Program-made: the position numbers and the translations under genes | The notes under the pieces: model-generated | Database searches by the model: none | What the model was told of the DNA's origin: nothing | What the model saw: only the letters and a program-made list of their open reading frames with translations | Shown: in pieces, positions 14,149 through 36,099 of the stretch | Layout of the letters: every line of letters starts with the position of its first letter | Position numbering within the stretch: the stretch's first letter is position 1 | Assembly: GCF_913778135.1 (NCBI RefSeq) | Contig: NZ_CAJYVU010000046.1 | Span: forward strand, 3,928 to 67,927 | Reading direction: 5' to 3' | Length of the DNA stretch: 64,000 nt | DNA from: an uncultured Sphingomonas sp. | Lineage (GTDB): Bacteria; Pseudomonadota; Alphaproteobacteria; Sphingomonadales; Sphingomonadaceae

Positions 14149-14648
14149 GTGTTCGCAGGCACCATTTAGAGGCCTGTAGCTGTGACGTTGAGAAGTCAGC
14201 GGCGCATATTCGACCTAAATTGTTCGAAGAATTCCAGTCATCGCCCTCTTCTTGGCTGAAGCTCAAGAAGCGTCATGCGGATCACCATTTTCGGCCGTTC
14301 AGAGCCAGTTTACCCCTCTCCAACTCCGGCCCTTCGTTCACCTCGGCCGAGCGGCGGATTTGGCGCTTTCGTCGAACCGGCTGAACGGCATCGGCGGTAG
14401 ATCTCCGCCCTTCTGAAACTAATGCCCCTATACGGCGTCAGCCGGTCTCCGACGCATCGCGCCGCTTGACGGATCAAACCGTGATTGTGTCGAAGGGGCA
14501 TGAACGATAGCGCAGCGCGAGCGTGACCGGCAGCGAACTAGCCTACCTTGATACTGGGTTAGGTCGAGCGGGTAGCGGCAGGCGGACTGGGAATCGACTC
14601 TCGCGCGCGGCAGCCGCTATCAAAACGGCTAGTCCTCGAAAGGCAATC

Positions 14649-17177
14649 ATGCCCAAACTTCCTCGCGCCTTCCTATCTCACCACTCGGCTGACAAGAAGA
14701 TTGTCGGCGAAGTCGCAAGGTCGCTCGGCCGCGCCGCAGTGATTTATGACGCCTTCGAATTTGACGCTGGTGATGACTTCAGGGAGGCTATTCTCGCTAG
14801 CCTCTCTCGTTCGGACATCTTCGTCCTTTTCGCTAGTCGTGGCGCACTGACACGCGACTGGGTCAGATTTGAGATTGCCACCGCGAAGGAGGCGATGACG
14901 CGCAAGGCCCTCAGCAGGGTAGTTACCTTTATAATAGATCCAGCCCTCGACCTTGACGATCTACCCAATTGGATGAAGCAGACGCTCATCGTCCGTCAAG
15001 ACAACGCCGGCCTGATCGCGATCGAGATCAGGCGCATGATTGGCCAACGTCTCGCGGAAAGAATACCGTCCTACTTTGTCGGACGACGTGCCGAGATTGA
15101 GGAGGCCCTTGACGTCATTTCGAGTTTTACCGATCCCGACCAGCGTCCGCCTCTGCTAGTATACGGTCTTAAGGGAATTGGTCGGCGGACCCTCGTCCAA
15201 GCGGTAGCAAGGGACAATCTCTCCTATTCGACCACGTTGCCGGTCCCGCTCGGAGCCGGCGATCTGATGCCGGAGACGTTCGTTCGGCTCTCGGACGCCC
15301 TGTCGCCAGGCGGAGTCGCCGACTACGCTGTCCTCTTGGCCGAGCAGCAGGCCAAGGCGCCCGACACTCTCAGGGCTGACGTGCTTGAACTCATGAGCGT
15401 CGCATGCGACGCAGGAACGCTGCCGGTCATCGTCGACAACGGCGCCTTGGCTCAGCAGAACGGCGTGCTCCGACCGGAGTTCGAGGCGCTCTACCATGCG
15501 ATCGCGGCAGATCGCATGATTGACGCGGTCTTTATTGCGAGCCGACGCCTGTACGGGGCCGGGGGAGCGAGCCTGCCCTCGCTGCGCGTTCCTGAACTTG
15601 ACCAGGCATCTACCCAAAACTTACTGCGGGTCGCGGGCCGAGACATGGGGCTGGTCTTCGCAAGATCCGAACTCAGCTCACTGGCGACGTACTCTAGGGG
15701 CTACCCGCCCGCCGTACGCTTCGCGCTGGACGAAGCGCGGACCAGAGGCGTGCCGCAGGTCGTGGCAAATCAACGCGCGTTGGTAAACTTCAGCGCCGAG
15801 CTCTTTCTTCGACAGCTGAAAGAGAACAGCGCAATTACGCCCGCAATGGTCACAATGCTGAGGCTGCTATCGGCCTTCAGCCCTTTGCCACTCGGCGTCT
15901 TAGCGGATTACGGCGGAATTGCTGATGCCGAAGCCAACGCAGCAATGGACCAGCTCATTGATCTCGCCTTCGTGTTACCGGATGGGCTGAACTTCCGCAT
16001 TACCGAGCCGCTTCGCGATGCCGCCTACCGTGCCTTCGACGGCTTAAGGGTGGATTCCTCACGCCTCGCCGACCTGCTGGACGCATATCTGCGAGAAGAG
16101 GCCGGCGACGACGCACGGTTGAGCCTCGGGCAGACGATCTTCCGAGCCAGCCTGCTCGCGGGAACGCCGGCGCTGTCCCCGTTCGCGGTCGGTTTCGCGG
16201 CAGATCTGATCCAAGTGGCCACCCGCAGCTACCACGACCAAGACTACGATCTTGCGATACGCTACGGAGCGGCGGCGTTGGAGGCCCGGCCCGACAACGT
16301 CGACGTGCGCCGCTACGTTGCGCAGGCTTTCATCAGACGAGATAAGTTCGACGATGCGGACGCTCATATCGACGAGCTGATCAGGCAAGGTGAGCTGAAG
16401 GAGGCTTTCTATATTCGAGGCTTCGCGGCCCGCCGCAGAAGGGAGTACGGTGCAGCGGTCGAAGCGTATGAGAAGAGCCTCGCGTATGGCCGCGGGGGCG
16501 TTGCCGTTCATCGCGAACTCGCCAGCAGCTATTTCGAGCTAGGAGATCTCGCCAAAGCCGAGCATCATATCACACAAGCCGAGGAGAAGTCGCCGCACAA
16601 CCGCTACGTCGTTGACCTGCGCTGTACTATAGCGCTGCGCCACGGAGACTTGGAAACCGCAGCCAGAACTTTGGATGTCCTCGAACGAGTAGATCCGAGC
16701 GGCTTCGCCGACCACCGCCGTTCAACTTTCGAGCAGGCGCGTGGCAATCCAGGGGCGGCGCTGCGATACGCCGAAACGGCAAACCGCACCATACCGCATC
16801 CGCCATTCGAAGTCATGGCTAACCTGGCAAACTGTGAAATTGAGGCGGACCGTGCCGAGGCCGCACTCTCGACGCTGACCTTATTGTCTAAGCGCTTCGG
16901 AGGAGCCAACCATGACGCCCAAGTCGGCTTGCGATGCAAATACGAAATTCGGTTCGGCAGCCTCGACGCTGCAGAGGGCCTATGGACGACGCTCCGCGAT
17001 CGTGGCACGCCGGTTCACACAGGTCTCCGCCTATCGATCCTGAACCGCAAGGGAGCAGAAGTCGGACTCGACGCGGCCGACGAGAAAGAGCGGCAAGGCT
17101 TGGCGGAGCGACAGTCGGCCCTGGAGGCGGAGCGCAATCAGCGCATGCTGGGCTCGATCTTCTCGCGCTCAGAATAG
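14649..17177 (+). CDS. TIR-STAND/NB-ARC-like-TPR protein (NLR-like)
   Basis: N-terminal TIR (AFLSHHSADK...DWVRFEI), FVGRRAEI followed by LLVYGLKGIGRRT P-loop-like motif, GYPPAV, C-terminal TPR-like helices. Confidence 0.8.
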   Translation: MPKLPRAFLSHHSADKKIVGEVARSLGRAAVIYDAFEFDAGDDFREAILASLSRSDIFVLFASRGALTRDWVRFEIATAKEAMTRKALSRVVTFIIDPALDLDDLPNWMKQTLIVRQDNAGLIAIEIRRMIGQRLAERIPSYFVGRRAEIEEALDVISSFTDPDQRPPLLVYGLKGIGRRTLVQAVARDNLSYSTTLPVPLGAGDLMPETFVRLSDALSPGGVADYAVLLAEQQAKAPDTLRADVLELMSVACDAGTLPVIVDNGALAQQNGVLRPEFEALYHAIAADRMIDAVFIASRRLYGAGGASLPSLRVPELDQASTQNLLRVAGRDMGLVFARSELSSLATYSRGYPPAVRFALDEARTRGVPQVVANQRALVNFSAELFLRQLKENSAITPAMVTMLRLLSAFSPLPLGVLADYGGIADAEANAAMDQLIDLAFVLPDGLNFRITEPLRDAAYRAFDGLRVDSSRLADLLDAYLREEAGDDARLSLGQTIFRASLLAGTPALSPFAVGFAADLIQVATRSYHDQDYDLAIRYGAAALEARPDNVDVRRYVAQAFIRRDKFDDADAHIDELIRQGELKEAFYIRGFAARRRREYGAAVEAYEKSLAYGRGGVAVHRELASSYFELGDLAKAEHHITQAEEKSPHNRYVVDLRCTIALRHGDLETAARTLDVLERVDPSGFADHRRSTFEQARGNPGAALRYAETANRTIPHPPFEVMANLANCEIEADRAEAALSTLTLLSKRFGGANHDAQVGLRCKYEIRFGSLDAAEGLWTTLRDRGTPVHTGLRLSILNRKGAEVGLDAADEKERQGLAERQSALEAERNQRMLGSIFSRSE

Positions 17178-17357
17178 TTATACCGGCGGGTCAGCCGGCC
17201 TAATGCCGTGGCTCCGCCGCCATTACCGGTTGCGAAAAAGCGGCATGGTCGAGGGCGGGCAGCCCTCGCTTCGACGACCCACACGACGCGCCCTGACCCA
17301 CGAAGTGACATTTTCGCGTCGGGCCTAGCCGCGCACGGTACACAGCGGGCAGACCGC

Positions 17358-17792
17358 TTAGTCGGCCGCTTCATCGATCCACTTCTTCAACATCGCGTGA
17401 TCGACGTAGCTGCGCACGGGGGCCTGAGAATTGACGATGGCTTGAGGCGTCGCACCGACCGGATCAGTCATGCCCGTTTTGTCCTTGAGATGGTTGATGC
17501 GAAGCGCGACAATCCCGTTCCCGCGCGCGATCGACTGCTCGATCTCATAATCGATGTACTTGCGACCCGCTGATTTTGCGCCGATGCACACGACTGTCAC
17601 CGACGTGTTCGCCAAGCCGTTGTCGATGAGCGCTTTAATGGCCTTGTCACCCTTGGTCTTGGCGTCTTCCCACAGTGAGGCGTCGTGGAAGCCCGCCGCC
17701 GCGACGCCGACAATCTCGCCGATGTTGCGGATCTGGTTCACGCGCCAGATGTCGCGATCGTAGTGGAAGCTAAAGAAGACCCGGCGCGCCAC
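17358..17792 (-). CDS. ThsB-like TIR protein (DUF1863/MTH538 type)
   Basis: (GTG)ARRVFFSFHYDRDIWRVNQIRN...TSVTVVCIG...YIDYEIEQS..RGNGIVAL. Confidence 0.88.
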   Translation of the reverse strand: MARRVFFSFHYDRDIWRVNQIRNIGEIVGVAAAGFHDASLWEDAKTKGDKAIKALIDNGLANTSVTVVCIGAKSAGRKYIDYEIEQSIARGNGIVALRINHLKDKTGMTDPVGATPQAIVNSQAPVRSYVDHAMLKKWIDEAAD

Positions 17793-17879
17793 GACTTTAC
17801 TCCAAAGCCAAATCGGACGCATAGCGCGCGTCGATCCCCACGTGCAACGTCCGCAACCGCGAGATCATCGACGTTGCAA

Positions 17880-18365
17880 TCAGGGATGAGCGATCCGCGC
17901 CAGCCTGCATCGAACCCTTTCGACCAGATCTTCCACCGACGACGCCCGCTCGATGCCGTAGCGCTCAGCCGTGATGTCGATGTTACCCTTGCGAAAGTAG
18001 TCGGGCGCGCAGAACACGATCAGCCTTCCTCCGCGGGCGTGTAATCCTAATTCGAGAAGGCTGATAGGACTCTTGGAGCCTGACGCGAAATGCAGCACGA
18101 CAATGTCGGCCACCTCCAGGGCCTCAAGTTCCCACTTGACCTGCTCTCTGAAGTGCGGCTCGTCGGCGACAGGCAGCCAGTCAGCGCTCCAGTCCGCCCG
18201 GCGCGGGTTCACGATCGCCGCGCGCTCGCCGGACAGCAATTCTATGGCCTGCGCCTGCCAATCTTCGGAGTCGCCCATGTCAATGGTGCCGCCTAAGTAA
18301 ACCATCGGCCATCGGTTCGCGTTGGCGAGAGGCTGTGGAGCGGTGATCACGCGGGCGACGGTCAA
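17880..18365 (-). CDS. Nucleoside 2-deoxyribosyltransferase-like protein
   Basis: VYLGGTI, NPRR, QVKWELEALEVAD, SPISLLELG, FRKGNIDI; TTGA overlap with patatin stop. Confidence 0.8.
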   Translation of the reverse strand: MTVARVITAPQPLANANRWPMVYLGGTIDMGDSEDWQAQAIELLSGERAAIVNPRRADWSADWLPVADEPHFREQVKWELEALEVADIVVLHFASGSKSPISLLELGLHARGGRLIVFCAPDYFRKGNIDITAERYGIERASSVEDLVERVRCRLARIAHP

Positions 18366-21100
18366 GCTGGTTCTCCGATCGCTTTCGGTGCAACGATGCC
18401 ATCCCCGGTCACCGACGTGGCCGCGTCAAGAGGCTCAAGCAAGCTCTTTCCCATTGCCGCGAACCAATGTCCGATGTCTACATCCTGGTCTGTCGGGAAC
18501 GCCCCAACGATGCTCTGGAGGAAGAGCTTCTCCCCAACGTGCTGCCCGAGGCTCCGATAGGCCTCAAAGCGGGCCTCGCTAAAGTTCTGATCCGCCGTCG
18601 GATGATGGGGAAAGGCGGGCTCATCGAGCCTAAACCGGCGCAGGAACTCCCCTTCGTTACCGGTGAGGGACAGCTTGAGGTAGAGCATGTAGCCGACCGC
18701 TCCGTCGCGATAGCGGATGCGGCAGAACTGGAAGTGTGAGCGGCTGAGTCCGTCTCCATTACGCCTCAGTTCATCCAGATTGATCTCGATACGCACGCCC
18801 AAGTCGATCGAGGCGAGCCGCTGCAGGTTAGCAATGGCATGAAAGGTCATGTCTTGGTCCTGCTCGCCATCGATCACAACCACGAACTTGCAGCGTCGCC
18901 TCAGCAGCTCGTAGACTCCGAGATTTTCAATATGGCCGCCGTCGGAGAGGTTAAGGAAAGCGGCACGCTCGTCCATCCGACCGGTGAGTTCGCGAAGCAG
19001 GTAACTGAGGCCTGGTAAGCCTTGCGGGCTCGATTTTTCGACCGCGGGATTTCTTAGCCAGTATCCCAGCCTGACGTTCAGCAGCGAAAGCCAAAAGCTG
19101 AACTGCCCCCGATTGTGTAGACCCATGCGGGGCGAGATCGCTGCACCGGAGATCGCCATCGCTGTGGCGATCGTCAGGTCAGGCTCCAGGCACTCCCATT
19201 CCGTCGTCCGGTGATAGCCGCTGATCGGACTGCCACAGTGGTGTGGTGTGAACGAGAAAAAGTCGGTGAGGCGCCCTCGCATCGCTGGTGCGTCGGAACT
19301 CGGCACGTTGAGCGCCGCGTTGAAGATGGGATAGGGGCCGAGACGACCTTCAGCGAGCGAACTGAGCTTGCGGTCGTCGTCGGTGACCACCGCTCCCGGC
19401 TTGGCGTCAGCTACGAGAAACGCTTCCGCCAGCTTGCGCCGATAGTGCCGGTGCAAGCCAGTGACGTTGAGGTTTAAGAAAAAGTGATAGTAGCCTGCGA
19501 TACCAAGCGCGGCGACGGCGAACCAGAGGCCGTATTGCTCATGATCGATAAAAAATGCGGTCGACGCCAGCGTCACGATTGTCACGAACAGCGGGGCGGA
19601 GGAGCGCGCCAACCAGCGCCCGACGATCGGCGCCCTGGTCAGGGTCCGTTCCAGAACGATGCCGACGACCAGCAGGCCGAGCGGAGCGATGCAAACGTAG
19701 AGCAGTTGCAAGGGGTCGTCACCCATCGCGAGAGCCATCCACGCGGCGGATTCCCGCATGCCGATCGCGGCCAGCGCCACGGCCAGAACCACCGCGCACA
19801 TAGCCGTTGCTTGGTCGGCAAACTTCACCCCCTCTCGCCCCTGCCGCCACGCCAACGGCGCTCCGATCATAGCCAAGGAGAGAGCTCCAAGCGAAACGAC
19901 GGCAATCCAGTTGGTAAAGAAGGAAGGTATGAGGATAACGAATAGAGCCGAGAAAAGGCACAGGACCGCAGACAGCGCGAGGAGGTTGTTCAGCAGGCCG
20001 CTCGTCTGCGCGAAGACCGTGGACCATATCTTAGACAAGGGTCCTGACGCTAGATAGCGGCTGTTCTGACGGATGTGACCCGTGGCTGCGGCATCGCGGT
20101 GCGTTTCCCCGAACGGCCTGTCGCCACGCTCTAGTCCGATCGGCCGTGCCGCCTCGATCGCGCCGTCACCGGCCCCGACGTCACCAGCGGGCCCGCTCGT
20201 TCGATCGACATCTGTCGTCTCACCGGCAGCCAGGTAGTTCGTCAGAAATGCCCCGAGATAGCCGCCGCCGCTGACCGTCGAGAGGTAGTCGAACTGCTTG
20301 AGCAGGCCGCGTTTAGCGAACACGGTCAGCACGCCGAGGGCGAAAGTGGCCGACCGAATGCCGCCGCCAGAAAGCGCCAGCCCGGTCGCCCGCTCAGCCG
20401 TTAGCTCAATGCCGTAGCGCAGCCGCCGTCGATTGACCGCCTCCCGCTCAACCGACGCGATTTCGTCAAAGGAGATGCCCTTTACGCCATCGAGATCGTT
20501 CGGATCGCCCTTGTCTAGACCCCAACACAGCGCCACTCCCATCTCCAGATCTACGGCGGCCGCCTCCGCCTGCGGCAGCCGCCCAGGATCCTTCTCGCCC
20601 GCCAGCCTAAGGAGCATGAGATCCAGAGTTCGCAGGGTCTCCTGCAAGGCGGCTAGCTGCAGCCGGAAGTCGTCCGTGTCGTCGAGCGCGGCTAGGCGCC
20701 CCGCGCGATTGCGACGGTGCCAGCGCGAGGTGAATGGGCGAACGTGGTGGTTAAGCACGAACCACGTGACCGTCTCGAAGATTCGCCCCGTCGCGTTCTC
20801 CCGACAGATCACACGCGTCCGTTCGAACAATGCGTGCACGCTCTCAAGCGCAGACACCTCGTCGCCGCTCGAATAGCCGATCTCCTGAGTCGCGACACGC
20901 GACGTCAACTCCAGATGCAGCAGCGAAGCGGCCCTGACATCGGTCTCGCTGGGAGCCCACGCGCGGTGGCCGTGCGCCTCCAGGAACGCGTTCGTTAGGA
21001 CGGGCGTCGCGCCGACGTCCAACGCCCTCAGCTGGTCCTCCCAAGTCGTTTCGCTCACCGACCCCGTCCCATTGCTCGCTACGTCATCCCTGGAAGGCAT
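18362..21100 (-). CDS. Membrane patatin/cPLA2-like phospholipase with unknown N-terminal helical domain
   Basis: GLALSGGGIRSA, YLSTVSGGGY (Ser), LSDGGHIENLG (Asp); central hydrophobic segments; start set at ATG 21100. Confidence 0.85.
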   Translation of the reverse strand: MPSRDDVASNGTGSVSETTWEDQLRALDVGATPVLTNAFLEAHGHRAWAPSETDVRAASLLHLELTSRVATQEIGYSSGDEVSALESVHALFERTRVICRENATGRIFETVTWFVLNHHVRPFTSRWHRRNRAGRLAALDDTDDFRLQLAALQETLRTLDLMLLRLAGEKDPGRLPQAEAAAVDLEMGVALCWGLDKGDPNDLDGVKGISFDEIASVEREAVNRRRLRYGIELTAERATGLALSGGGIRSATFALGVLTVFAKRGLLKQFDYLSTVSGGGYLGAFLTNYLAAGETTDVDRTSGPAGDVGAGDGAIEAARPIGLERGDRPFGETHRDAAATGHIRQNSRYLASGPLSKIWSTVFAQTSGLLNNLLALSAVLCLFSALFVILIPSFFTNWIAVVSLGALSLAMIGAPLAWRQGREGVKFADQATAMCAVVLAVALAAIGMRESAAWMALAMGDDPLQLLYVCIAPLGLLVVGIVLERTLTRAPIVGRWLARSSAPLFVTIVTLASTAFFIDHEQYGLWFAVAALGIAGYYHFFLNLNVTGLHRHYRRKLAEAFLVADAKPGAVVTDDDRKLSSLAEGRLGPYPIFNAALNVPSSDAPAMRGRLTDFFSFTPHHCGSPISGYHRTTEWECLEPDLTIATAMAISGAAISPRMGLHNRGQFSFWLSLLNVRLGYWLRNPAVEKSSPQGLPGLSYLLRELTGRMDERAAFLNLSDGGHIENLGVYELLRRRCKFVVVIDGEQDQDMTFHAIANLQRLASIDLGVRIEINLDELRRNGDGLSRSHFQFCRIRYRDGAVGYMLYLKLSLTGNEGEFLRRFRLDEPAFPHHPTADQNFSEARFEAYRSLGQHVGEKLFLQSIVGAFPTDQDVDIGHWFAAMGKSLLEPLDAATSVTGDGIVAPKAIGEPA

Positions 21101-21196
21101 CGGCCCACCAGGCGCCTGCACGTTAGACACCGCGGCGCTCGCGTCAAAGAACGACCTGTCGCGGAGAAGGGTTGAGTTTGGTCGCGCAAGGTGGGA

Positions 21197-21211
21197 GAAC
21201 GTTGATGGAAC
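21197..21211. promoter_or_regulatory. Alphaproteobacterial LexA (SOS) box
   Basis: GAAC-GTTGATG-GAAC; reverse strand reads TTTGTTC-N7-GTTCT; lies in the divergent intergenic region. Confidence 0.75.
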
Positions 21212-21269
21212 AAATTCCCGTGTCTGAACGCCGGTGCAGCTCGGGTGGAAAAGCGAGGATGACTTTCCG

Positions 21270-21764
21270 ATGGCAAAGCGTCGCCACGTCTTTATCAGCC
21301 ACCACCATGCCGACGACGCCCACGTCAGCGGCCTGACCGACATGCTCAAGCGCAACGGTCATGAGATCCGCAACAGCTCGATCCGCGCCAAGCCGGCCAA
21401 CCAGCGTCGCCTGGATGAGGGCCGCGTGAGCGACAATGCCATCAAACGACTGCTGCGGATGAAGATGAATTGGGCGTCCACGGTCGTAGTGCTGATCGGC
21501 AAGCAGACTCACGCGCGACCGTGGGTCGATTGGGAGATCAGGAAGGCGCACGAGCTGGGGAAGCGGATCGTCGGTGTCTACGAGCGCGGCGGGCGCGAGA
21601 ACGACATTCCGGATGCGTTCAAGAAGTACGGTGACGCCCTCGTCGGCTGGAACTCCGACAATGTGATCGGTGCGATAGACGGCACGTGCTCCCCCTTCGA
21701 ACGACCAGATGGCGGATCGCGCGCCACCTCTGGTGACGGCGCGCGGAGCAGCTGCGCCGCCTAA
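21270..21764 (+). CDS. ThsB-like TIR protein (DUF1863 type)
   Basis: RHVFISHHHADD, STVVVLIG, RPWVDWEIRKA, IVGV. Confidence 0.88.
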   Translation: MAKRRHVFISHHHADDAHVSGLTDMLKRNGHEIRNSSIRAKPANQRRLDEGRVSDNAIKRLLRMKMNWASTVVVLIGKQTHARPWVDWEIRKAHELGKRIVGVYERGGRENDIPDAFKKYGDALVGWNSDNVIGAIDGTCSPFERPDGGSRATSGDGARSSCAA

Positions 21765-22414
21765 TGCCGCACGTCCACGTCTACGCTGTCAGCTACGACC
21801 TAGGCTTCGCGCCGAACCCGTTCGGCGGCGTGTGCAGTCTGGCCTGCTGCAAGCCGGAGATCAGGAGGACCGCGCAACTCGACGACTGGGTCGTCGGATT
21901 GACCAGCACCAAGCTCCCACCAGCGCTGCGGCTCGTGTTCGCAATGAGGGTCTCTAGGATCAGCGACTTCGACGAATACTGGAGTTCGGCGGAGTTCGCC
22001 GGTCGAAAGGCGGCCCGCAACGGTTCGCAGAAGGCGCAGGTGGGCGACAACATTTACCATCGCGACAGACCCGAAACCGACTGGATCCAGGAAGATTCAG
22101 TGCACAGCCTTCCCGGCGGCCTGCAATGCGATCTTAATCGAGATCACGACACGCGCGTGAACCGGATCCTGCTGTCCGACCACTTCCTCTACCTCGGTGA
22201 TCAAGCGCGCGCCGTCCCGAATGAGATACTCGTCGAGCTAAAGTATTGGAAGAATCCGCGTGATCGCCGCAAATTCACGATGGAAGAGGCGGCGGACCTA
22301 ATTGGGTGGATCGAAGGGCTGAAGGCCGCCGCGGCAGCATCCGTCGTCGGCGATCCCATCGACTTCGACAAAACCGGCAAGACGTTCTCCTACGTCGGGC
22401 AGAAGATGATTTGA
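21764..22414 (+). CDS. Nucleotide modification associated domain 2 (Nmad2)-like protein
   Basis: YDLGFAPNPFGGVCSLACCKP.IR, LVFAMRV, GDNIYH, LLSDHFLY; TAATG overlap with TIR stop. Confidence 0.75.
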   Translation: MPHVHVYAVSYDLGFAPNPFGGVCSLACCKPEIRRTAQLDDWVVGLTSTKLPPALRLVFAMRVSRISDFDEYWSSAEFAGRKAARNGSQKAQVGDNIYHRDRPETDWIQEDSVHSLPGGLQCDLNRDHDTRVNRILLSDHFLYLGDQARAVPNEILVELKYWKNPRDRRKFTMEEAADLIGWIEGLKAAAAASVVGDPIDFDKTGKTFSYVGQKMI

Positions 22415-22504
22415 CGGCGATGGTTCACCCCGCAGCGGCCCGGCCGTTCGGTCGATTCCGGATGTCACGCGGCGATTCAATAGCATCAAACATTGTGGGC
22501 TGAC

Positions 22505-24103
22505 GTGACCTCATACCGCAACATCAGCGTGGCGACGGTGAATATCGTTGGGGAGCTGCTGAGCACGGGATCAACGATCTCGGTCCGCGGCTTGCAAACC
22601 CGCGAGGTCCTCGCCCGCCATACGCGACTGGAGCGTCCGCTGGAGCGCTACCTCTTCGTGCCGGAACGCAACGACGACGTCTTCGCGCAGGTCGCAGAAA
22701 CCATGTGGGTGCTCGCCGGCCGGGATGACGTCGCCTGGCTGGAGCGATACCTCCCAAGGGCGCGCGAGTTCTCGGATAATGGCGAGACCTGGCGCGCAGC
22801 ATACGGGCCGCGCCTGCGTAACTGGAACGGACGCGACCAGATTGCCGAGACGGTGCGGCTGCTGACCGAAGACCCGACCAGCCGCCGCGCGGTGATGTCG
22901 CTCTTCGATCCCGACCGCGACTTCATCGAGTCGAAGGACGTTCCGTGCACCAATTGGCTGGGATGGATCATCCGCGATAAGCGGCTCGAAATGAGCGTCA
23001 CGCTGCGCAGCAACGACGTGATATGGGGCTTCTCCGGCGTCAACTCGTTCGAGTGGAGCATCCTGCAGGAGATGCTCGCGTTCTGGCTCGGCGTGGAGGT
23101 CGGCCCCGCGAACTACTTCGCCATGTCGCTGCACCTGTACGACCGGCACGTCGATCGCGCGGGCAGGATTGTGCAGGCGGCGCGACGGCCGTCGCCGTAT
23201 GACTTCAGAATCAAACGGCATCCGTTCGCAACCCCTTGGGTGGATTTTGACGCCAAGCTCGCGCGCTGGTTTGCTCTGGAGCAGGCCGTCTCCACGAATC
23301 CTGGACAGCCGATCGGCAGCTTCGGCTCCGTGGGAGACCCGCTGCTCGATGCCGCACTCACGCTCGTCCACCTGAGGTGGGCCTCGGAGGTCTGGGACGA
23401 CCGGCGACTGGTCCGGGAACTCGGCCAATTACCGGCCGCCGATCACGTCGTGGCCGCCTACCGTCACCTCGGCCGGCGCCGGCCCGATGTCCTTGAGTGC
23501 ATCCCGCAAGAGGAGGTAGCGGCATTCTTCTCCGCGGCCGGAACGGCGGCAGAAATTTCCGACGAGGACGTGAGGGGCGCCATTAAGCGTCTGCACGCGG
23601 AGAAGAACAGAGCCTATGCCGGGGCATGGAAGCGGCGGGGCGAGCTGGTCAGCATTCAACCCAACATCGCCCGCAAGGTCGATCGGCTGGAGACGTTGGT
23701 CGCCACCAGAACGCTCATGGCGGGCGAGACGGCGCTCGACACCGCGATAGACCTCCTTATCTACGCGGAGAAATACCGGCTTTTCTTGGCCGAGGGGATG
23801 ACGCCGGGCACATTGATCCCAACGGACGCTCTGGAGCCGTTAAGCGACCACGACGCCAACCTTGATCTGCTCATCGACCGCTTGGGTCTGACGCCGAGCG
23901 GGCGCGAGGTTGAAATCATCGTACGGGAAATCGTCGAGGCATTCGATCATAGCTGGCGGAGAGCGGAGAGCGGCGCCTTGCCCGAGGACCGTTTCGAGAC
24001 CGCTACCCTCGTGTCCACACTTGCCGGCGAACTTGTGGCACTGCTGGCTGGGCGCGACAGAGAGGCGGTCGCCCGGTTCCTTCGACACGAAGCTCGGAAA
24101 TGA
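22505..24103 (+). CDS. Thymidylate-synthase-superfamily enzyme (dUMP hydroxymethylase-like) fused to DUF1599/Nmad1-like domain
   Basis: DPTSRRAV, DVPCTN (catalytic Cys), LRSNDVIWGFSGVN, SLHLY; C-terminal EKNRAYAGAW...NIARKVDRL...DTAIDLLIYA; start 22493 or 22505. Confidence 0.8.
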   Translation: MTSYRNISVATVNIVGELLSTGSTISVRGLQTREVLARHTRLERPLERYLFVPERNDDVFAQVAETMWVLAGRDDVAWLERYLPRAREFSDNGETWRAAYGPRLRNWNGRDQIAETVRLLTEDPTSRRAVMSLFDPDRDFIESKDVPCTNWLGWIIRDKRLEMSVTLRSNDVIWGFSGVNSFEWSILQEMLAFWLGVEVGPANYFAMSLHLYDRHVDRAGRIVQAARRPSPYDFRIKRHPFATPWVDFDAKLARWFALEQAVSTNPGQPIGSFGSVGDPLLDAALTLVHLRWASEVWDDRRLVRELGQLPAADHVVAAYRHLGRRRPDVLECIPQEEVAAFFSAAGTAAEISDEDVRGAIKRLHAEKNRAYAGAWKRRGELVSIQPNIARKVDRLETLVATRTLMAGETALDTAIDLLIYAEKYRLFLAEGMTPGTLIPTDALEPLSDHDANLDLLIDRLGLTPSGREVEIIVREIVEAFDHSWRRAESGALPEDRFETATLVSTLAGELVALLAGRDREAVARFLRHEARK

Positions 24104-25050
24104 CGCCCAACATCACGACCGACCTCCGGATCCGCCTCGTGCAGACCCTCGCTAAGCGCAATCCGGGCGCCCGCGTTGCGATAGTCGGCTGGTCGACGGC
24201 GGCCATCGAACTCGCTGCCGATCCGATCTTCGCGGAGGGGGCCGCGACGCTCATCGGGCGATATGCAGCGCAAACGGGCGGCTCCATCCTGCCCCTCTCT
24301 GAACTTGCGTCCGCGATCCCAGACGTCGTCGTCGTCGCGGAGGACGACGGCAAAGAGCCCCTCCTCAAGGCGGTAGCGAGGCTGGTTCCCGCGACCACAA
24401 CCATCGTTATCGCCGGCTTCGGTCACTTCGCCTTTCGTGACGAGCTGTTCGACCGCGTCCGGCGCGACGCTCTCATCCCCTCTTTCGCAAACGGGTATCC
24501 CAATTGCCTTGTGCACATTTACCAGTGTCTGAGGAACGCCCGCGCGCGAGGCCTGACCGGCGTTGTGGCGGAGTTCGGCATGTTCAAGGGCGGCACCACC
24601 ATGCTCATGTCCCGCTTCATCGAGGAACTCGGCGCCGACTGGAAGGTGATTGGCTTCGATACGTTCGATGGCTTTCCGTCGAAGCGCAGCCCACTGGACA
24701 TGTACGCTCATCCTGACTGCGTATTTCTCGACGTGGGCACCCTGCGCGCCATGTTCGCAGGCCGCGACGTCGAGATCGTCGAGGGAGACGTAGTGGAGAC
24801 ATGCGCGCGTCTCAATGACGAGCGGCTCGTGCTCTCTTTTGTGGACACGGACAATTACACGTCGGCCAATGCGATCCTGGCAGTCATAGCGGATCGCACT
24901 CAGGTGGGTGGCGCCATCGTGTTTGATCATTGGACAGGCGTCGATCGGTACCTCGACACCATTGGCGAGCGGATAGCGGCGATGACTCTGGCCGCGGATC
25001 GACGCTACTTCAACCTGCACGGCACCGGTGTATTTCTGAGGCAGGAATGA
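24100..25050 (+). CDS. TylF/MycF-family O-methyltransferase with N-terminal Rossmann-like domain
   Basis: VAEFGMFKGG, GFDTFDGFP, VEGDVVET, FVDTDNY, GGAIVFDHW. Confidence 0.82.
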   Translation: MTPNITTDLRIRLVQTLAKRNPGARVAIVGWSTAAIELAADPIFAEGAATLIGRYAAQTGGSILPLSELASAIPDVVVVAEDDGKEPLLKAVARLVPATTTIVIAGFGHFAFRDELFDRVRRDALIPSFANGYPNCLVHIYQCLRNARARGLTGVVAEFGMFKGGTTMLMSRFIEELGADWKVIGFDTFDGFPSKRSPLDMYAHPDCVFLDVGTLRAMFAGRDVEIVEGDVVETCARLNDERLVLSFVDTDNYTSANAILAVIADRTQVGGAIVFDHWTGVDRYLDTIGERIAAMTLAADRRYFNLHGTGVFLRQE

Positions 25051-26159
25051 GCGCAACCGGCAGCCATTTCGTGCGGCGCGTACCGCCGATGCCACGCGCC
25101 GGCGTCTACGACCTGTACTGGCAGTTCGCATCAAAGCGCCAAGCGGCGTTCGAGGCCCGGCTTGCGGGCAGCTGCTGGCCTTGGTCGCCCGACCCGATTC
25201 TGCAGACCTTCAAGTTCTGCAATGTTTATCGTGCAGCCGACCGCGTGTCACAATACCTCATTCGGCACGTGGCCTACGACAACCATCCGGAAACGACGCC
25301 TAGAGACCGCGTTTTCCAGATCACGGCCTTCCGCACGTTCAGCAAGATCGCGACGTGGGAGGGGGTAGTCGATGAGCTGGGCGGTCCACCGATGCTAGAG
25401 CACCTCCGCTCCGGCGCATTTGAGACGGCGCTTGACCAGGTCAGGGCGCGCAACGGCGGTCTCTATACAGGTGCCTTCATCCTATGCGCCAACAAGGCCT
25501 TCGGCTTCCAGGAAAAGCACCGAAATCACATTGCGTTGTTCAAGCACATGTTCCTAGAGAGCATGTGCGCTGAACGGGTCCTACAGTTGCCTTCCCTACG
25601 CGGCGTTGTGGAGCTGCTGCAGAGCTTCCCGCTGCTCGGGCCCTTTATGGCGTACCAGACCGCCATCGACATCAACTACTCTGAACTGACGGCATTTAGC
25701 GAGAACGACCACACCCAGGCCGGCCCTGGCGCGCTCCGCGGCTTAAAGAAGGCCTTTATCCACCTGGGTGACCATTCGCCGTCCGACGCAATTCTGTGGA
25801 TGGTCGACAACCAGGAAGCTGAATTCGCACGCTTGGACCTACCGTTCCAAGGGTTGTTCGGTCGGCCTCTGCACGCGATCGACTGCCAAGGTCTGTTCTG
25901 CGAACTCGACAAGTACTGCCGCGAGGCCGTGCCGGACCTGACCAGCGCGAGGAGCAGGATTAAGGCGCGGTATCGCGGGTCAAACGATGCTATCGATCTG
26001 TTCTTTCCGCCCAAGTGGAAATTGTTCACCACGGCCGGCATACCTGCGGCGCACATCAAAGTGCTCGGCAATCGATCGGTTATGCGGCCGAGGATAGCCA
26101 GAAGCCATAGCCGCGACGGCCGGGGAATGCGCGACCTCTTCGATACCGCGCGAGACTGA
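25047..26159 (+). CDS. 5-hmdU DNA kinase-like helical domain protein (aGPT-Pplase1 family)
   Basis: PWSPDPILQTFKFCNVYRAADRVSQYL, FRTFSKIATW, AYQTAID, GPGALRGL, FCELDKY. Confidence 0.8.
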   Translation: MSATGSHFVRRVPPMPRAGVYDLYWQFASKRQAAFEARLAGSCWPWSPDPILQTFKFCNVYRAADRVSQYLIRHVAYDNHPETTPRDRVFQITAFRTFSKIATWEGVVDELGGPPMLEHLRSGAFETALDQVRARNGGLYTGAFILCANKAFGFQEKHRNHIALFKHMFLESMCAERVLQLPSLRGVVELLQSFPLLGPFMAYQTAIDINYSELTAFSENDHTQAGPGALRGLKKAFIHLGDHSPSDAILWMVDNQEAEFARLDLPFQGLFGRPLHAIDCQGLFCELDKYCREAVPDLTSARSRIKARYRGSNDAIDLFFPPKWKLFTTAGIPAAHIKVLGNRSVMRPRIARSHSRDGRGMRDLFDTARD

Positions 26160-26408
26160 GCCGGATGCGGGTGCTCGCCAAATGAACGAATGAGTGTTTG
26201 CAGCGGGCGCCACGTTAAAGCGGACACGCCGATTTCCACCAATCCAAGCAGTTAACGTTTCGTCAAATAACTACCAAAATGATCGCATCGTTGCACATTT
26301 GATTGGTTAGAAGGACAACACCGTCATTCTGATGAGCTATTCATTTTCACACCAGCCCGTTTGCTTAATGGCAGACCCATTATCTGCCTCAGATACTTTC
26401 TTAAAATG

Positions 26409-31542: not shown

Positions 31543-32525
31543 TGTCGAACAGGCTCAGAACCGTGGTTTTCAGCCCCTCCGAGCTGCTTCCACAGACGGG
31601 CAGCCCTCAACCGGATGTAAAACCCCGAAAGTTGGTCGCTCTCGCTTCGCGCGATCAGATAATACGGTCGATCTATATTCAAAATCCGAACCACACGCCC
31701 GTCTTTAAATCCCTTGACCTGGTTCTTAGCCTCGGTGTCAAAGGTGTTTTTCAGACTGGTGTTCGGAACGCCGCACCAAGTTTCGCAGGGAAGAGCGCGT
31801 CTGCGGATGAGTTCGCGCGGATCGTAGAACGGCGCGAGACTTACCCCAAGGAGACCAGCCCAGTTGTCCGGGTGGAGCTCGAGCAGGCATGCACGTCAAG
31901 GCGCTTCTGGTCGACAATCCTCGGAAAGTATGGCGACGGCTTCACGGCTTCGAAGGACGAGGAAGGATTGCGTCGCAGCACCTACGATGCCTTTGAGCGT
32001 CACGGGACGAAGCTGCTGATCATCGACGAGGTGCAACACGCCGGATACCGATCCAAGGGTTCCTCCGCACCGACCGACGTTATCAAGCGCTTCATCTCCG
32101 ATGCACAGGTTGGCGTCGGGCTGTTCGGCAACGAGCAAACGCTCGAGCTTCTCCAATCCAATAATCAACTGAGCCACCGGTTGCAGGAACCATGCGACAT
32201 CAAGCCGCTCGACATCACTGAGCCATCCGCCTTGCCGAGATTTGGAAAGTTCCTTGCCGACTACGACGATGCCCTGATTGCAAACAAGCTCTTCACGACC
32301 AGCCTGCCTCTTCGCGATGCACGGGTTGCGGGTTGCCTGATGACTATCGCTAGTGGCTTTCTCGGCAGAGTTGTCACGCTGCTGCAGATTGCAGGGCGGC
32401 GAGCTTTCCTGCGCGGCGCGACTTCGATCGAGTTGCACGACCTTTCGCATGCCTCTACGTCGTGGGCGGTCCAGCAACGGCTAACGCCGCACGACCCTTT
32501 TCGGTTCGGCATTGCAGGTGGCTAA
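31539..32525 (+). CDS. tnsC: TnsC/TniB-like AAA+ ATPase
   Basis: Walker A APSFAGKS, Walker B LLIIDEVQH, QLSHR; ATGA overlap with tnsB. Confidence 0.88.
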   Translation: MMSNRLRTVVFSPSELLPQTGSPQPDVKPRKLVALASRDQIIRSIYIQNPNHTPVFKSLDLVLSLGVKGVFQTGVRNAAPSFAGKSASADEFARIVERRETYPKETSPVVRVELEQACTSRRFWSTILGKYGDGFTASKDEEGLRRSTYDAFERHGTKLLIIDEVQHAGYRSKGSSAPTDVIKRFISDAQVGVGLFGNEQTLELLQSNNQLSHRLQEPCDIKPLDITEPSALPRFGKFLADYDDALIANKLFTTSLPLRDARVAGCLMTIASGFLGRVVTLLQIAGRRAFLRGATSIELHDLSHASTSWAVQQRLTPHDPFRFGIAGG

Positions 32526-34604: not shown

Positions 34605-34619
34605 GTTCACTTTGTGTTC
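34605..34619 (+). promoter_or_regulatory. Alphaproteobacterial LexA (SOS) box
   Basis: TTTGTTC-ACTTTGT-GTTCT about 50 bp upstream of ATG 34672. Confidence 0.8.
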
Positions 34620-34671
34620 TACGCGGAGGCTCTGTTGATTCGCGGTGAAGCGACAGCGATGGAGCTTTCGA

Positions 34672-34875
34672 ATGGAGCACGATCTCCAACTGCGTGCAGC
34701 TGCACGCGCGATCTACGACGCCTGCTACCCGTCCGAGGACTGGGCACCGATCGGCTTCGATGAGGCTGAGCGATACGCAACCGTGCACTACAGGCAGGCG
34801 GTTGGTGCAGCCCAGCAAGCTCGCGTGGTCTTGGCCAGCCGCGGTGAACAGCTGACTCCGCCAACCCTCGTCTGA
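34672..34875 (+). CDS. Small hypothetical protein
   Basis: GGAG RBS; MEHDLQLRAAARAIYDACYP... Confidence 0.6.
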   Translation: MEHDLQLRAAARAIYDACYPSEDWAPIGFDEAERYATVHYRQAVGAAQQARVVLASRGEQLTPPTLV

Positions 34876-35439: not shown

Positions 35440-36099
35440 ATGTGCAACCGCTACCGCATGACTGCCAAACAGGCCGAGCTTGCCTCACGCTACGGTGTGG
35501 AGGCGCCCTACCCCGAAGATGCCGACTTCCCACCGTCTGAGCTGTTTCCCGACCGCCTCGCGTGGGTGGCACGTCGAGGCGAGGACGGCCGCGTGCTGGA
35601 CACCATGAAGTGGGGCTTCCCACGCAAAGTGCCGGGCAAGAAGATCGACAAGGCGACCGGAAAGCCCCTGCTGCTCGACACCAAGGTGACGAACGTGCGC
35701 AACTACACGTCGCCCTTCTGGAAGTCGGCGCTAGCGAATCCCGAACGGCGCTGCCTCGTCCCGTTCACGGCATTCAGCGAGTATGGACCGGGCCCGGCTG
35801 GTAAGCGGCCACTCTACTGGTTCGATGTGCCCAGCCGCCCGATCGTCAGCTTCGCGGGCGTGTGGCGTCCCGTCGATGAAGGAGCGGTATTCGCCTTCCT
35901 GACCACCGAGCCGAACCCGCTTGTCGCACCGATCCACCCAAAAGCCATGCCGGTGTTGCTCGACGAGCAGGACGAGGAACGGTGGCTCACCTGTTCGTTC
36001 GACGAAGCGGTCGCCCTTGCCCGCCCCTTCCCCTCCCAGCTGATGTCCGTGCGACTGGCGCCTAACGCCAGCCCGACGGCGGAGCCGGAGCTGTTCTAG
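35440..36099 (+). CDS. SOS response-associated peptidase (SRAP/YedK/HMCES-like)
   Basis: MCNRY with catalytic Cys2, KWGF, TNVRN, CLVPFTAFSEY, FAGVW, IHPKAMPVLL. Confidence 0.92.
   Translation: MCNRYRMTAKQAELASRYGVEAPYPEDADFPPSELFPDRLAWVARRGEDGRVLDTMKWGFPRKVPGKKIDKATGKPLLLDTKVTNVRNYTSPFWKSALANPERRCLVPFTAFSEYGPGPAGKRPLYWFDVPSRPIVSFAGVWRPVDEGAVFAFLTTEPNPLVAPIHPKAMPVLLDEQDEERWLTCSFDEAVALARPFPSQLMSVRLAPNASPTAEPELF

Follow-up and report, generated by a model that had tools for sequence, protein, structure and literature searches.

The exact direct repeat GTTC-N7-GTTC at 21197-21211 (GAAC-N7-GAAC on the opposite strand) is likely to function as a LexA site, which would make the module that carries it a probable member of the LexA regulon of its host. 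We give roughly even weight to the narrower reading that this operator acts mainly on the plus-strand arm of the module, the operon ThsB2-Nmad2-TS-TylF-HMUDK, and at least one of the two arms is probably inducible by DNA damage. The window, that is, the whole stretch of 64,000 nucleotides that was analysed, corresponds to C46:3928-67927 of a 3.33-Mb draft genome of Sphingomonas with 67% GC.

The box and the module around it

The original prediction described a perfect GAAC-N7-GAAC between two divergent operons, patatin-NDT-TIR and TIR-Nmad2, and both the repeat and the flanking genes (as identified with Pfam) are as claimed. The features of the locus are as follows.

17329..26243, no strand assigned: 8.9-kb module, also present in Sphingomonas sp. 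ID0503; the box lies in the intergenic region of the module
17358..21058, minus strand: patatin-NDT-ThsB arm (Pfam and PADLOC), with the patatin start placed by conservation
17358-17822, minus strand: ThsB-type TIR of the minus arm (Pfam ThsB_TIR, PADLOC ThsB)
17880-18365, minus strand: Nuc_deoxyri_tr2, nucleoside 2-deoxyribosyltransferase-like (NDT; Pfam)
18362-21058, minus strand: patatin with a GTG start (Pfam)
21196..21214, minus strand: candidate LexA operator, reading TTTGTTCCATCAACGTTCT, with the core GTTC-N7-GTTC at 21197-21211
21270..21764, plus strand: ThsB2, a ThsB-type TIR and the first gene of the plus arm (Pfam ThsB_TIR 5.5e-21; PADLOC ThsB 7e-55)
21764..22414, plus strand: Nmad2 (Pfam Nmad2 2.4e-63), its start overlapping the ThsB2 stop (TAATG)
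22493-24103, plus strand: TS-like (thymidylate-synthase-like; Pfam)
24100-25050, plus strand: TylF methyltransferase (Pfam)
25047-26159, plus strand: HMUDK, 5-hmdU DNA kinase-like (Pfam)

On the plus strand the half-sites occupy 21197-21200 and 21208-21211 and enclose the spacer GTTGATG. The box lies in the 211-nt intergenic region (21059-21269) between the divergent patatin and ThsB2 starts, 58 nt from the latter and 138 nt from the former. The distance to ThsB2 is near the 14-52 nt found for the bona fide boxes of the genome. The GTTC repeat is oriented away from ThsB2, and most bona fide sites in the genome face their gene; the imuA site is likewise oriented away from its gene. A search for repeats and hairpins in the intergenic region found nothing meaningful, which leaves the box as the only candidate operator in the 211 nt, and an Rfam search of 20800-21500 returned one sub-threshold snoRNA match that we attribute to chance.

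These distances depend on the gene starts. ThsB2 begins at ATG 21270, behind the Shine-Dalgarno sequence GAGGA, and its start, MAKRRHVFISHHH, is kept in all homologues. For patatin we infer a start at GTG 21058. Two other starts were considered and rejected: relatives do not keep ATG 21100, whose frame is broken by an indel upstream of GTG 21058, and TTG 21355, which gives the longest open reading frame, is not conserved and also lies beyond that indel. Within the plus arm, the TS-like/TylF and TylF/HMUDK junctions are overlaps of 4 nt each, and the gene order TS-TylF-HMUDK recurs in four other loci (L034, L035, L036, and L064).

The stretch 17329-26243 is the only part of the window common to Sphingomonas sp. 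ID0503 (G095:C1:1022563-1031477; L031-L033), with 88.7% nucleotide identity, and the flanks of the shared block are unrelated in the two genomes. The module has 62% GC, compared with 68-69% in the chromosome flanks, and sits in a low-GC island in which rve and TniB genes were confirmed. Because it is the only shared stretch and its flanks differ, we regard it as a mobile module with its own control region, and in these two genomes it evidently behaves as a discrete transferable unit. No regulator gene is encoded within it, as judged with Pfam. Scans of viral contigs with patatin and ThsB2 recovered no relatives and gave no sign of a phage-borne module. The neighbouring TIR-STAND-TPR gene (14523-17177; 884 aa; PADLOC TIR-NLR) lies outside the module.

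Use of the motif by the host

Published work gives GTTCN7GTTC as the box of alphaproteobacteria, Caulobacter among them (PMC9578287, PMC3091678, PMC12700426), and the proposal that it serves as the alphaproteobacterial LexA site holds in this host, in which lexA, dinB, imuA, and radical-SAM genes carry the motif. The lexA gene (C37:16613-16029) is preceded by GTTC-N7-GTTC-N7-GTTC, that is, three GTTC units spaced 11 nt apart, and exact boxes are found 21-25 nt before the starts of dinB, imuA, and a radical-SAM/SplB-like repair gene; the upstream region of recA ends at a contig end in the draft genome. From these sites we conclude that the host evidently encodes an autoregulated LexA that uses GTTC-N7-GTTC and that the motif is clearly in use genome-wide.

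The bare pattern occurs three times in the window where 2.0 matches are expected, and at least three occur in 34 of 100 shuffles, which is not significant; the third match, at 31547, falls in coding sequence. In shuffles of the 211-nt intergenic region, an exact box on either strand arises in 0.5% (P ~0.005). The box at 21197-21211 is beyond chance at the level of the site, though not at the level of the window. The genome has 89 exact matches in total. Outside CDS cores the N7 spacing is found 41 times, compared with about 20 for the in-phase spacings N1, N4, N10, and N13, an approximately 2-fold enrichment, and about half of the exact matches there are expected by chance. The window count and this chance fraction both favor the alternative that the box is neutral or vestigial, a chance match or a remnant kept through recent shared ancestry. 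Against that alternative, the flanks of the box match the extended form of the real boxes of the genome. Of 17 positions compared between TTTGTTCCATCAACGTTCT and the lexA operator TGTTCCATAAAGGTTCT, 15 agree. The flank and spacer score of the box, a leave-one-out log-odds of non-CDS versus CDS matches, is +8.5 bits, ranking ninth of the 89 matches; the lexA site scores 7.0 and the dinB site 3.9, and the matches within CDS score at most 5.7, all below the box.

A second exact box lies in the same transposon-borne island as the module.

34605..34619, plus strand: second exact box, TTTGTTCACTTTGTGTTCT, before a small ORF (34645-34875), a 172-aa ORF, and an SRAP gene (35440-36099)

That the two boxes have an extended form in common, as originally noted, is borne out by comparison of TTTGTTCCATCAACGTTCT with TTTGTTCACTTTGTGTTCT. 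A paralogue of the small ORF that is 80% identical (C56:43622-43893) has an exact GTTC-N7-GTTC just upstream, and so does a distant paralogue of the 172-aa ORF that is 30% identical (C144:7624-8211). The small-ORF/172-aa/SRAP genes look like a recurring family of LexA-boxed cassettes.

Two further sites were seen elsewhere in the genome. Two exact GTTC-N7-GTTC matches (C113:20703-20740) lie 71 and 94 nt upstream of rpsB, which encodes ribosomal protein S2; this is not an expected SOS target, and the matches may be due to chance. An exact LexA box overlaps the start of a 229-aa protein with HTH and S24-peptidase domains (C107:3714-4400), which resembles LexA or phage repressors and is distinct from the canonical lexA on C37.

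Conservation of the divergent junction

Conservation of the box in homologous loci was named as a check by the original prediction, and it holds in five of the six distinct loci that share the divergent layout. One of the five comes from a metagenome-assembled genome (MAG) that is assigned to Mesorhizobium sp. through the NCBI names of identical proteins. L034, L035, and L048, whose patatins are approximately 89-90% identical to that of the window, carry an exact box, and so do L036 and L062, which are the same sequence from the Mesorhizobium MAG with a patatin that is 66% identical. Substitutions are confined to the spacer, which reads CATCAAC, CGTCAAC, or CACGAAT. At about 90% identity, the five copies of the Sphingomonas type say little alone, and the evidence for deep conservation comes from one independent comparison, that of the window clade with the Mesorhizobium MAG. 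In that comparison the intergenic DNA is 58% identical, yet the MAG has an exact box with unchanged orientation, again exactly 58 nt from the ThsB start. All eight core bases and six flanking bases are kept, and the spacer has changed at three of six positions. The longest conserved block between the two is TTTGTTCC...GTTCTC; other short conserved intergenic blocks are TGCGCGA, CTCAA, and TCTTTGA. The window host and Mesorhizobium belong to orders with the same LexA motif.

The exception is Sphingomonas sp. ID0503, in which the second half-site is GTGC. GTTC-N7-GTGC is not enriched in the window genome (27 vs 31). In ID0503, Nmad2 (G095:C1:1026386-1027033; L001) is interrupted near residue 104 by an in-frame TAG, and a frameshift splits the TS-like gene (G095:C1:1024689-1026294), in each case with an assembly error possible; the other plus-arm genes (ThsB2, TylF, and HMUDK) and the entire patatin arm are intact. 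Given the TAG in Nmad2 and the frameshift in the TS-like gene, the box appears to be broken where the plus arm decays.

We also considered whether the box travels simply with the ThsB-Nmad2 arm, and this was rejected: the exact box is present in none of five such arms in other contexts (L041 of S. aurantiaca, L042, L051 from a genome of the same genus, L063 of M. amorphae, and L064 of Mesorhizobium sp.). A patatin arm that has a different upstream neighbour and lacks the ThsB arm (L047) also has no box. To judge from these loci, the box is a property of the particular divergent junction and not of either arm generally. As the orthologous arms outside this junction lack an exact box, LexA control would not be general to the ThsB-Nmad2 operon. 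The variant GAAC-N7-GTAC precedes the ThsB start by 44 nt in L051 and by 73 nt in L064; it is not enriched in the window genome and was not counted as support. Distant patatin homologues of about 45% identity from other families of Sphingomonadales (L004-L030) have no upstream box; the comparison covered patatin and the DNA before it, and the result is uninformative.

The neutral reading introduced above would fit the core mutation in a close relative, ID0503, as well as the lack of a box at orthologous arms elsewhere. Against it, the Mesorhizobium copy retains core, flanks, position, and orientation despite the divergence of the surrounding DNA, and the sole mutated copy coincides with pseudogenes. 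We consider a neutral or vestigial box unlikely; were the site non-functional, it would be just a well-placed motif match.

Three other observations concern the regions upstream of ThsB-Nmad2 arms. In S. aurantiaca, TTGTTCCATCTTGCAC lies about 240 nt upstream of the arm (L041 12640-12660); it equals the first half-site and the spacer start of the window box without the second GTTC and may be a remnant or a coincidence. Two more distant loci, with patatins that are 56% identical, carry imperfect palindromes before the arm, CCGAACC-GTAGCACCG-GGGTTCG in L037 (9435-9465) and CCAGACC-GTAGCACTCC-GGTTCTGG in L039 (7915-7950). The changes in the palindrome arms look compensatory, and the element could represent another operator or a stem in RNA.

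Proposed direction of control and comparison with known systems

Two promoter-like elements can be proposed in the intergenic region.

21120..21147, minus strand: predicted patatin-arm promoter-like element, -35 TTGACG (21147-21142), N16, -10 TAACGT (21125-21120)
21202..21229, plus strand: speculative ThsB2 promoter, in which TTGATG (21202-21207), within the box spacer, would be the -35 hexamer and CTGAAC (21224-21229) a weak -10

A strict scan for sigma-70 promoters and terminators gave no match in the intergenic region of the window, the patatin element included. The hexamers of the patatin element are kept while its spacer has diverged (L036 TTGATC-N16-TACCGT, L047 TTGATC-N16-TACTCT). The candidates for a ThsB2 promoter near the box are weak or lineage-specific. 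The Sphingomonas copies have TTGATG or TTGACG in the box spacer and CTGAAC, CTGAAT, or CAGTAT 16-17 nt later (TTGACG-N17-CAGTAT in L048); the Mesorhizobium copy (L036) instead has TTGGAC-N18-TAGAAT from 8 nt past the box. With either candidate, LexA would sit on or against the ThsB2 -35 region, and this geometry favors control of the ThsB-Nmad2 arm.

It was originally proposed that both arms are SOS-inducible, which would be the case if a real LexA operator controlled both of them and one dimer shut off both. Single SOS boxes that serve the divergent uvrA-ssb promoters have been described in E. coli and S. meliloti, and the LexA of R. sphaeroides acts on recA from a position upstream of its -35 region. 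The box is also the sole candidate operator in a control region that the two arms share, and its distance to the -35-like hexamer of patatin is conserved (49 nt, compared with 48 nt in the Mesorhizobium comparison). The patatin element, though, which is the only conserved promoter-like element seen for that arm, starts 49 nt beyond the box, which would place LexA near -80 and outside the footprint of RNA polymerase, and we see no other patatin promoter that overlaps the box. Because of this position, and because L047 retains the patatin arm and its promoter-like element without a box, LexA is unlikely to repress the patatin arm directly, and the claim for both arms is not supported. We regard joint control as improbable.

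Finally, the conserved block could be the site of another host factor or a core promoter that merely resembles a LexA box, as the conservation of TGCGCGA, CTCAA, and TCTTTGA in the same region, the -35-like TTGATG/TTGACG within the box spacer of the Sphingomonas copies, and the different palindrome at distant ThsB-Nmad2 arms (CCGAACC...GGTTCG) might suggest; we consider this very unlikely given that the conserved bases are exactly the two GTTC units and their T and CT flanks, that the spacer with the putative -35 varies, that the module has no regulator gene, and that both hosts use the same LexA motif.

We therefore return to a LexA operator that acts mainly on the plus arm, that is, to a 15-nt direct repeat serving as a host LexA operator inside a horizontally mobile 8.9-kb module. 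In an undamaged cell, a LexA dimer bound 58 nt before the start of ThsB2 would cover or abut the -35 region and keep the operon off. After DNA damage, phage replication, or prophage induction, RecA filaments would form on single-stranded DNA and stimulate self-cleavage of LexA, and ThsB2-Nmad2-TS-TylF-HMUDK would be derepressed. The patatin-NDT-ThsB arm would have its own promoter about 50 nt past the box and would probably escape direct repression. In this scheme LexA binding, the direction of control, and the promoter positions are all predicted from sequence. If LexA does gate the operon, mitomycin C or depletion of LexA should turn it on, which would provide a handle on the set of a ThsB-type TIR, Nmad2, and dUMP-hydroxymethylase-like, TylF, and 5-hmdU-kinase-like proteins.

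More tentatively, and with somewhat less than even confidence, we hypothesize that a mobile TIR/patatin/thymidine-hypermodification module without a regulator of its own plugs into the SOS response of its host through the LexA box, such that activation of RecA would switch on TIR signalling together with base modification, and that this works across orders (Sphingomonadales and Hyphomicrobiales). Because the LexA motif is common across the Alphaproteobacteria, the switch would survive transfer between orders.

In itself the site would be a typical SOS box of the Alphaproteobacteria with an unusual location. The boxes of Caulobacter crescentus, Rhizobium, and Rhodobacter have the same exact core and T-rich extended flanks (PMC9578287, PMC12700426); they are likewise intergenic and tens of nucleotides before a start codon, and the lexA of the present host is autoregulated with the motif. 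The candidate box differs from classic ones in its targets, which would be a ThsB-type TIR and a thymidine-hypermodification-like cassette rather than genes for repair, mutagenesis, or cell division. Mobile genes with their own LexA box, as here, are also known from SRAP/ImuA-type cassettes and from toxin-antitoxin genes such as higBA in Caulobacter (PMC13384398); the module differs from these in its content of TIR, patatin, and nucleotide-modification genes.

A second comparison is with defence systems that respond to DNA damage. CapH/CapP is a DNA-damage-responsive regulator of defence systems that comes with its own regulator gene. For WYL/BrxR-type and DriD-like regulators, two reports describe the same logic, in which a signal of damage or single-stranded DNA raises the expression of anti-phage genes (PMC9122601, PMC12392091). 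All of these systems, WYL/BrxR, DriD-like, and CapH/CapP, bring a dedicated regulator, whereas the module would borrow LexA from its host by means of a 15-nt site. If this is correct, a defence-like and DNA-modification module would be under a borrowed global damage repressor, not one of the WYL or CapH type, for which the literature searched gave no precedent: none of the papers found there ties systems of the Thoeris, CBASS, or TIR type to a LexA box.

Both small TIR proteins match the PADLOC ThsB models strongly, a feature in common with Thoeris. Thoeris needs ThsA (SIR2/SLOG or Macro), and none was found by Pfam and PADLOC among the nine genes scanned (14523-26159); patatin and the NDT-like gene occupy the neighbouring positions. 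Since ThsA is absent, the module is not Thoeris, and we know of no LexA control of Thoeris.

The gene content of related loci varies. In a relative of about 90% identity, a 302-aa protein without a Pfam match replaces Nmad2 in an otherwise unchanged operon (L034 4388-5296). Elsewhere, patatin and ThsB-Nmad2 genes recur together with further TIR_2 genes, LD_cluster2 (SLOG-like) genes, and a Gp49/HTH_37 (HigBA-like) pair (L036/L062, L040, L041, L042, and L063), and these loci look like a family of TIR-rich alphaproteobacterial islands with shuffled gene orders and variable wiring.
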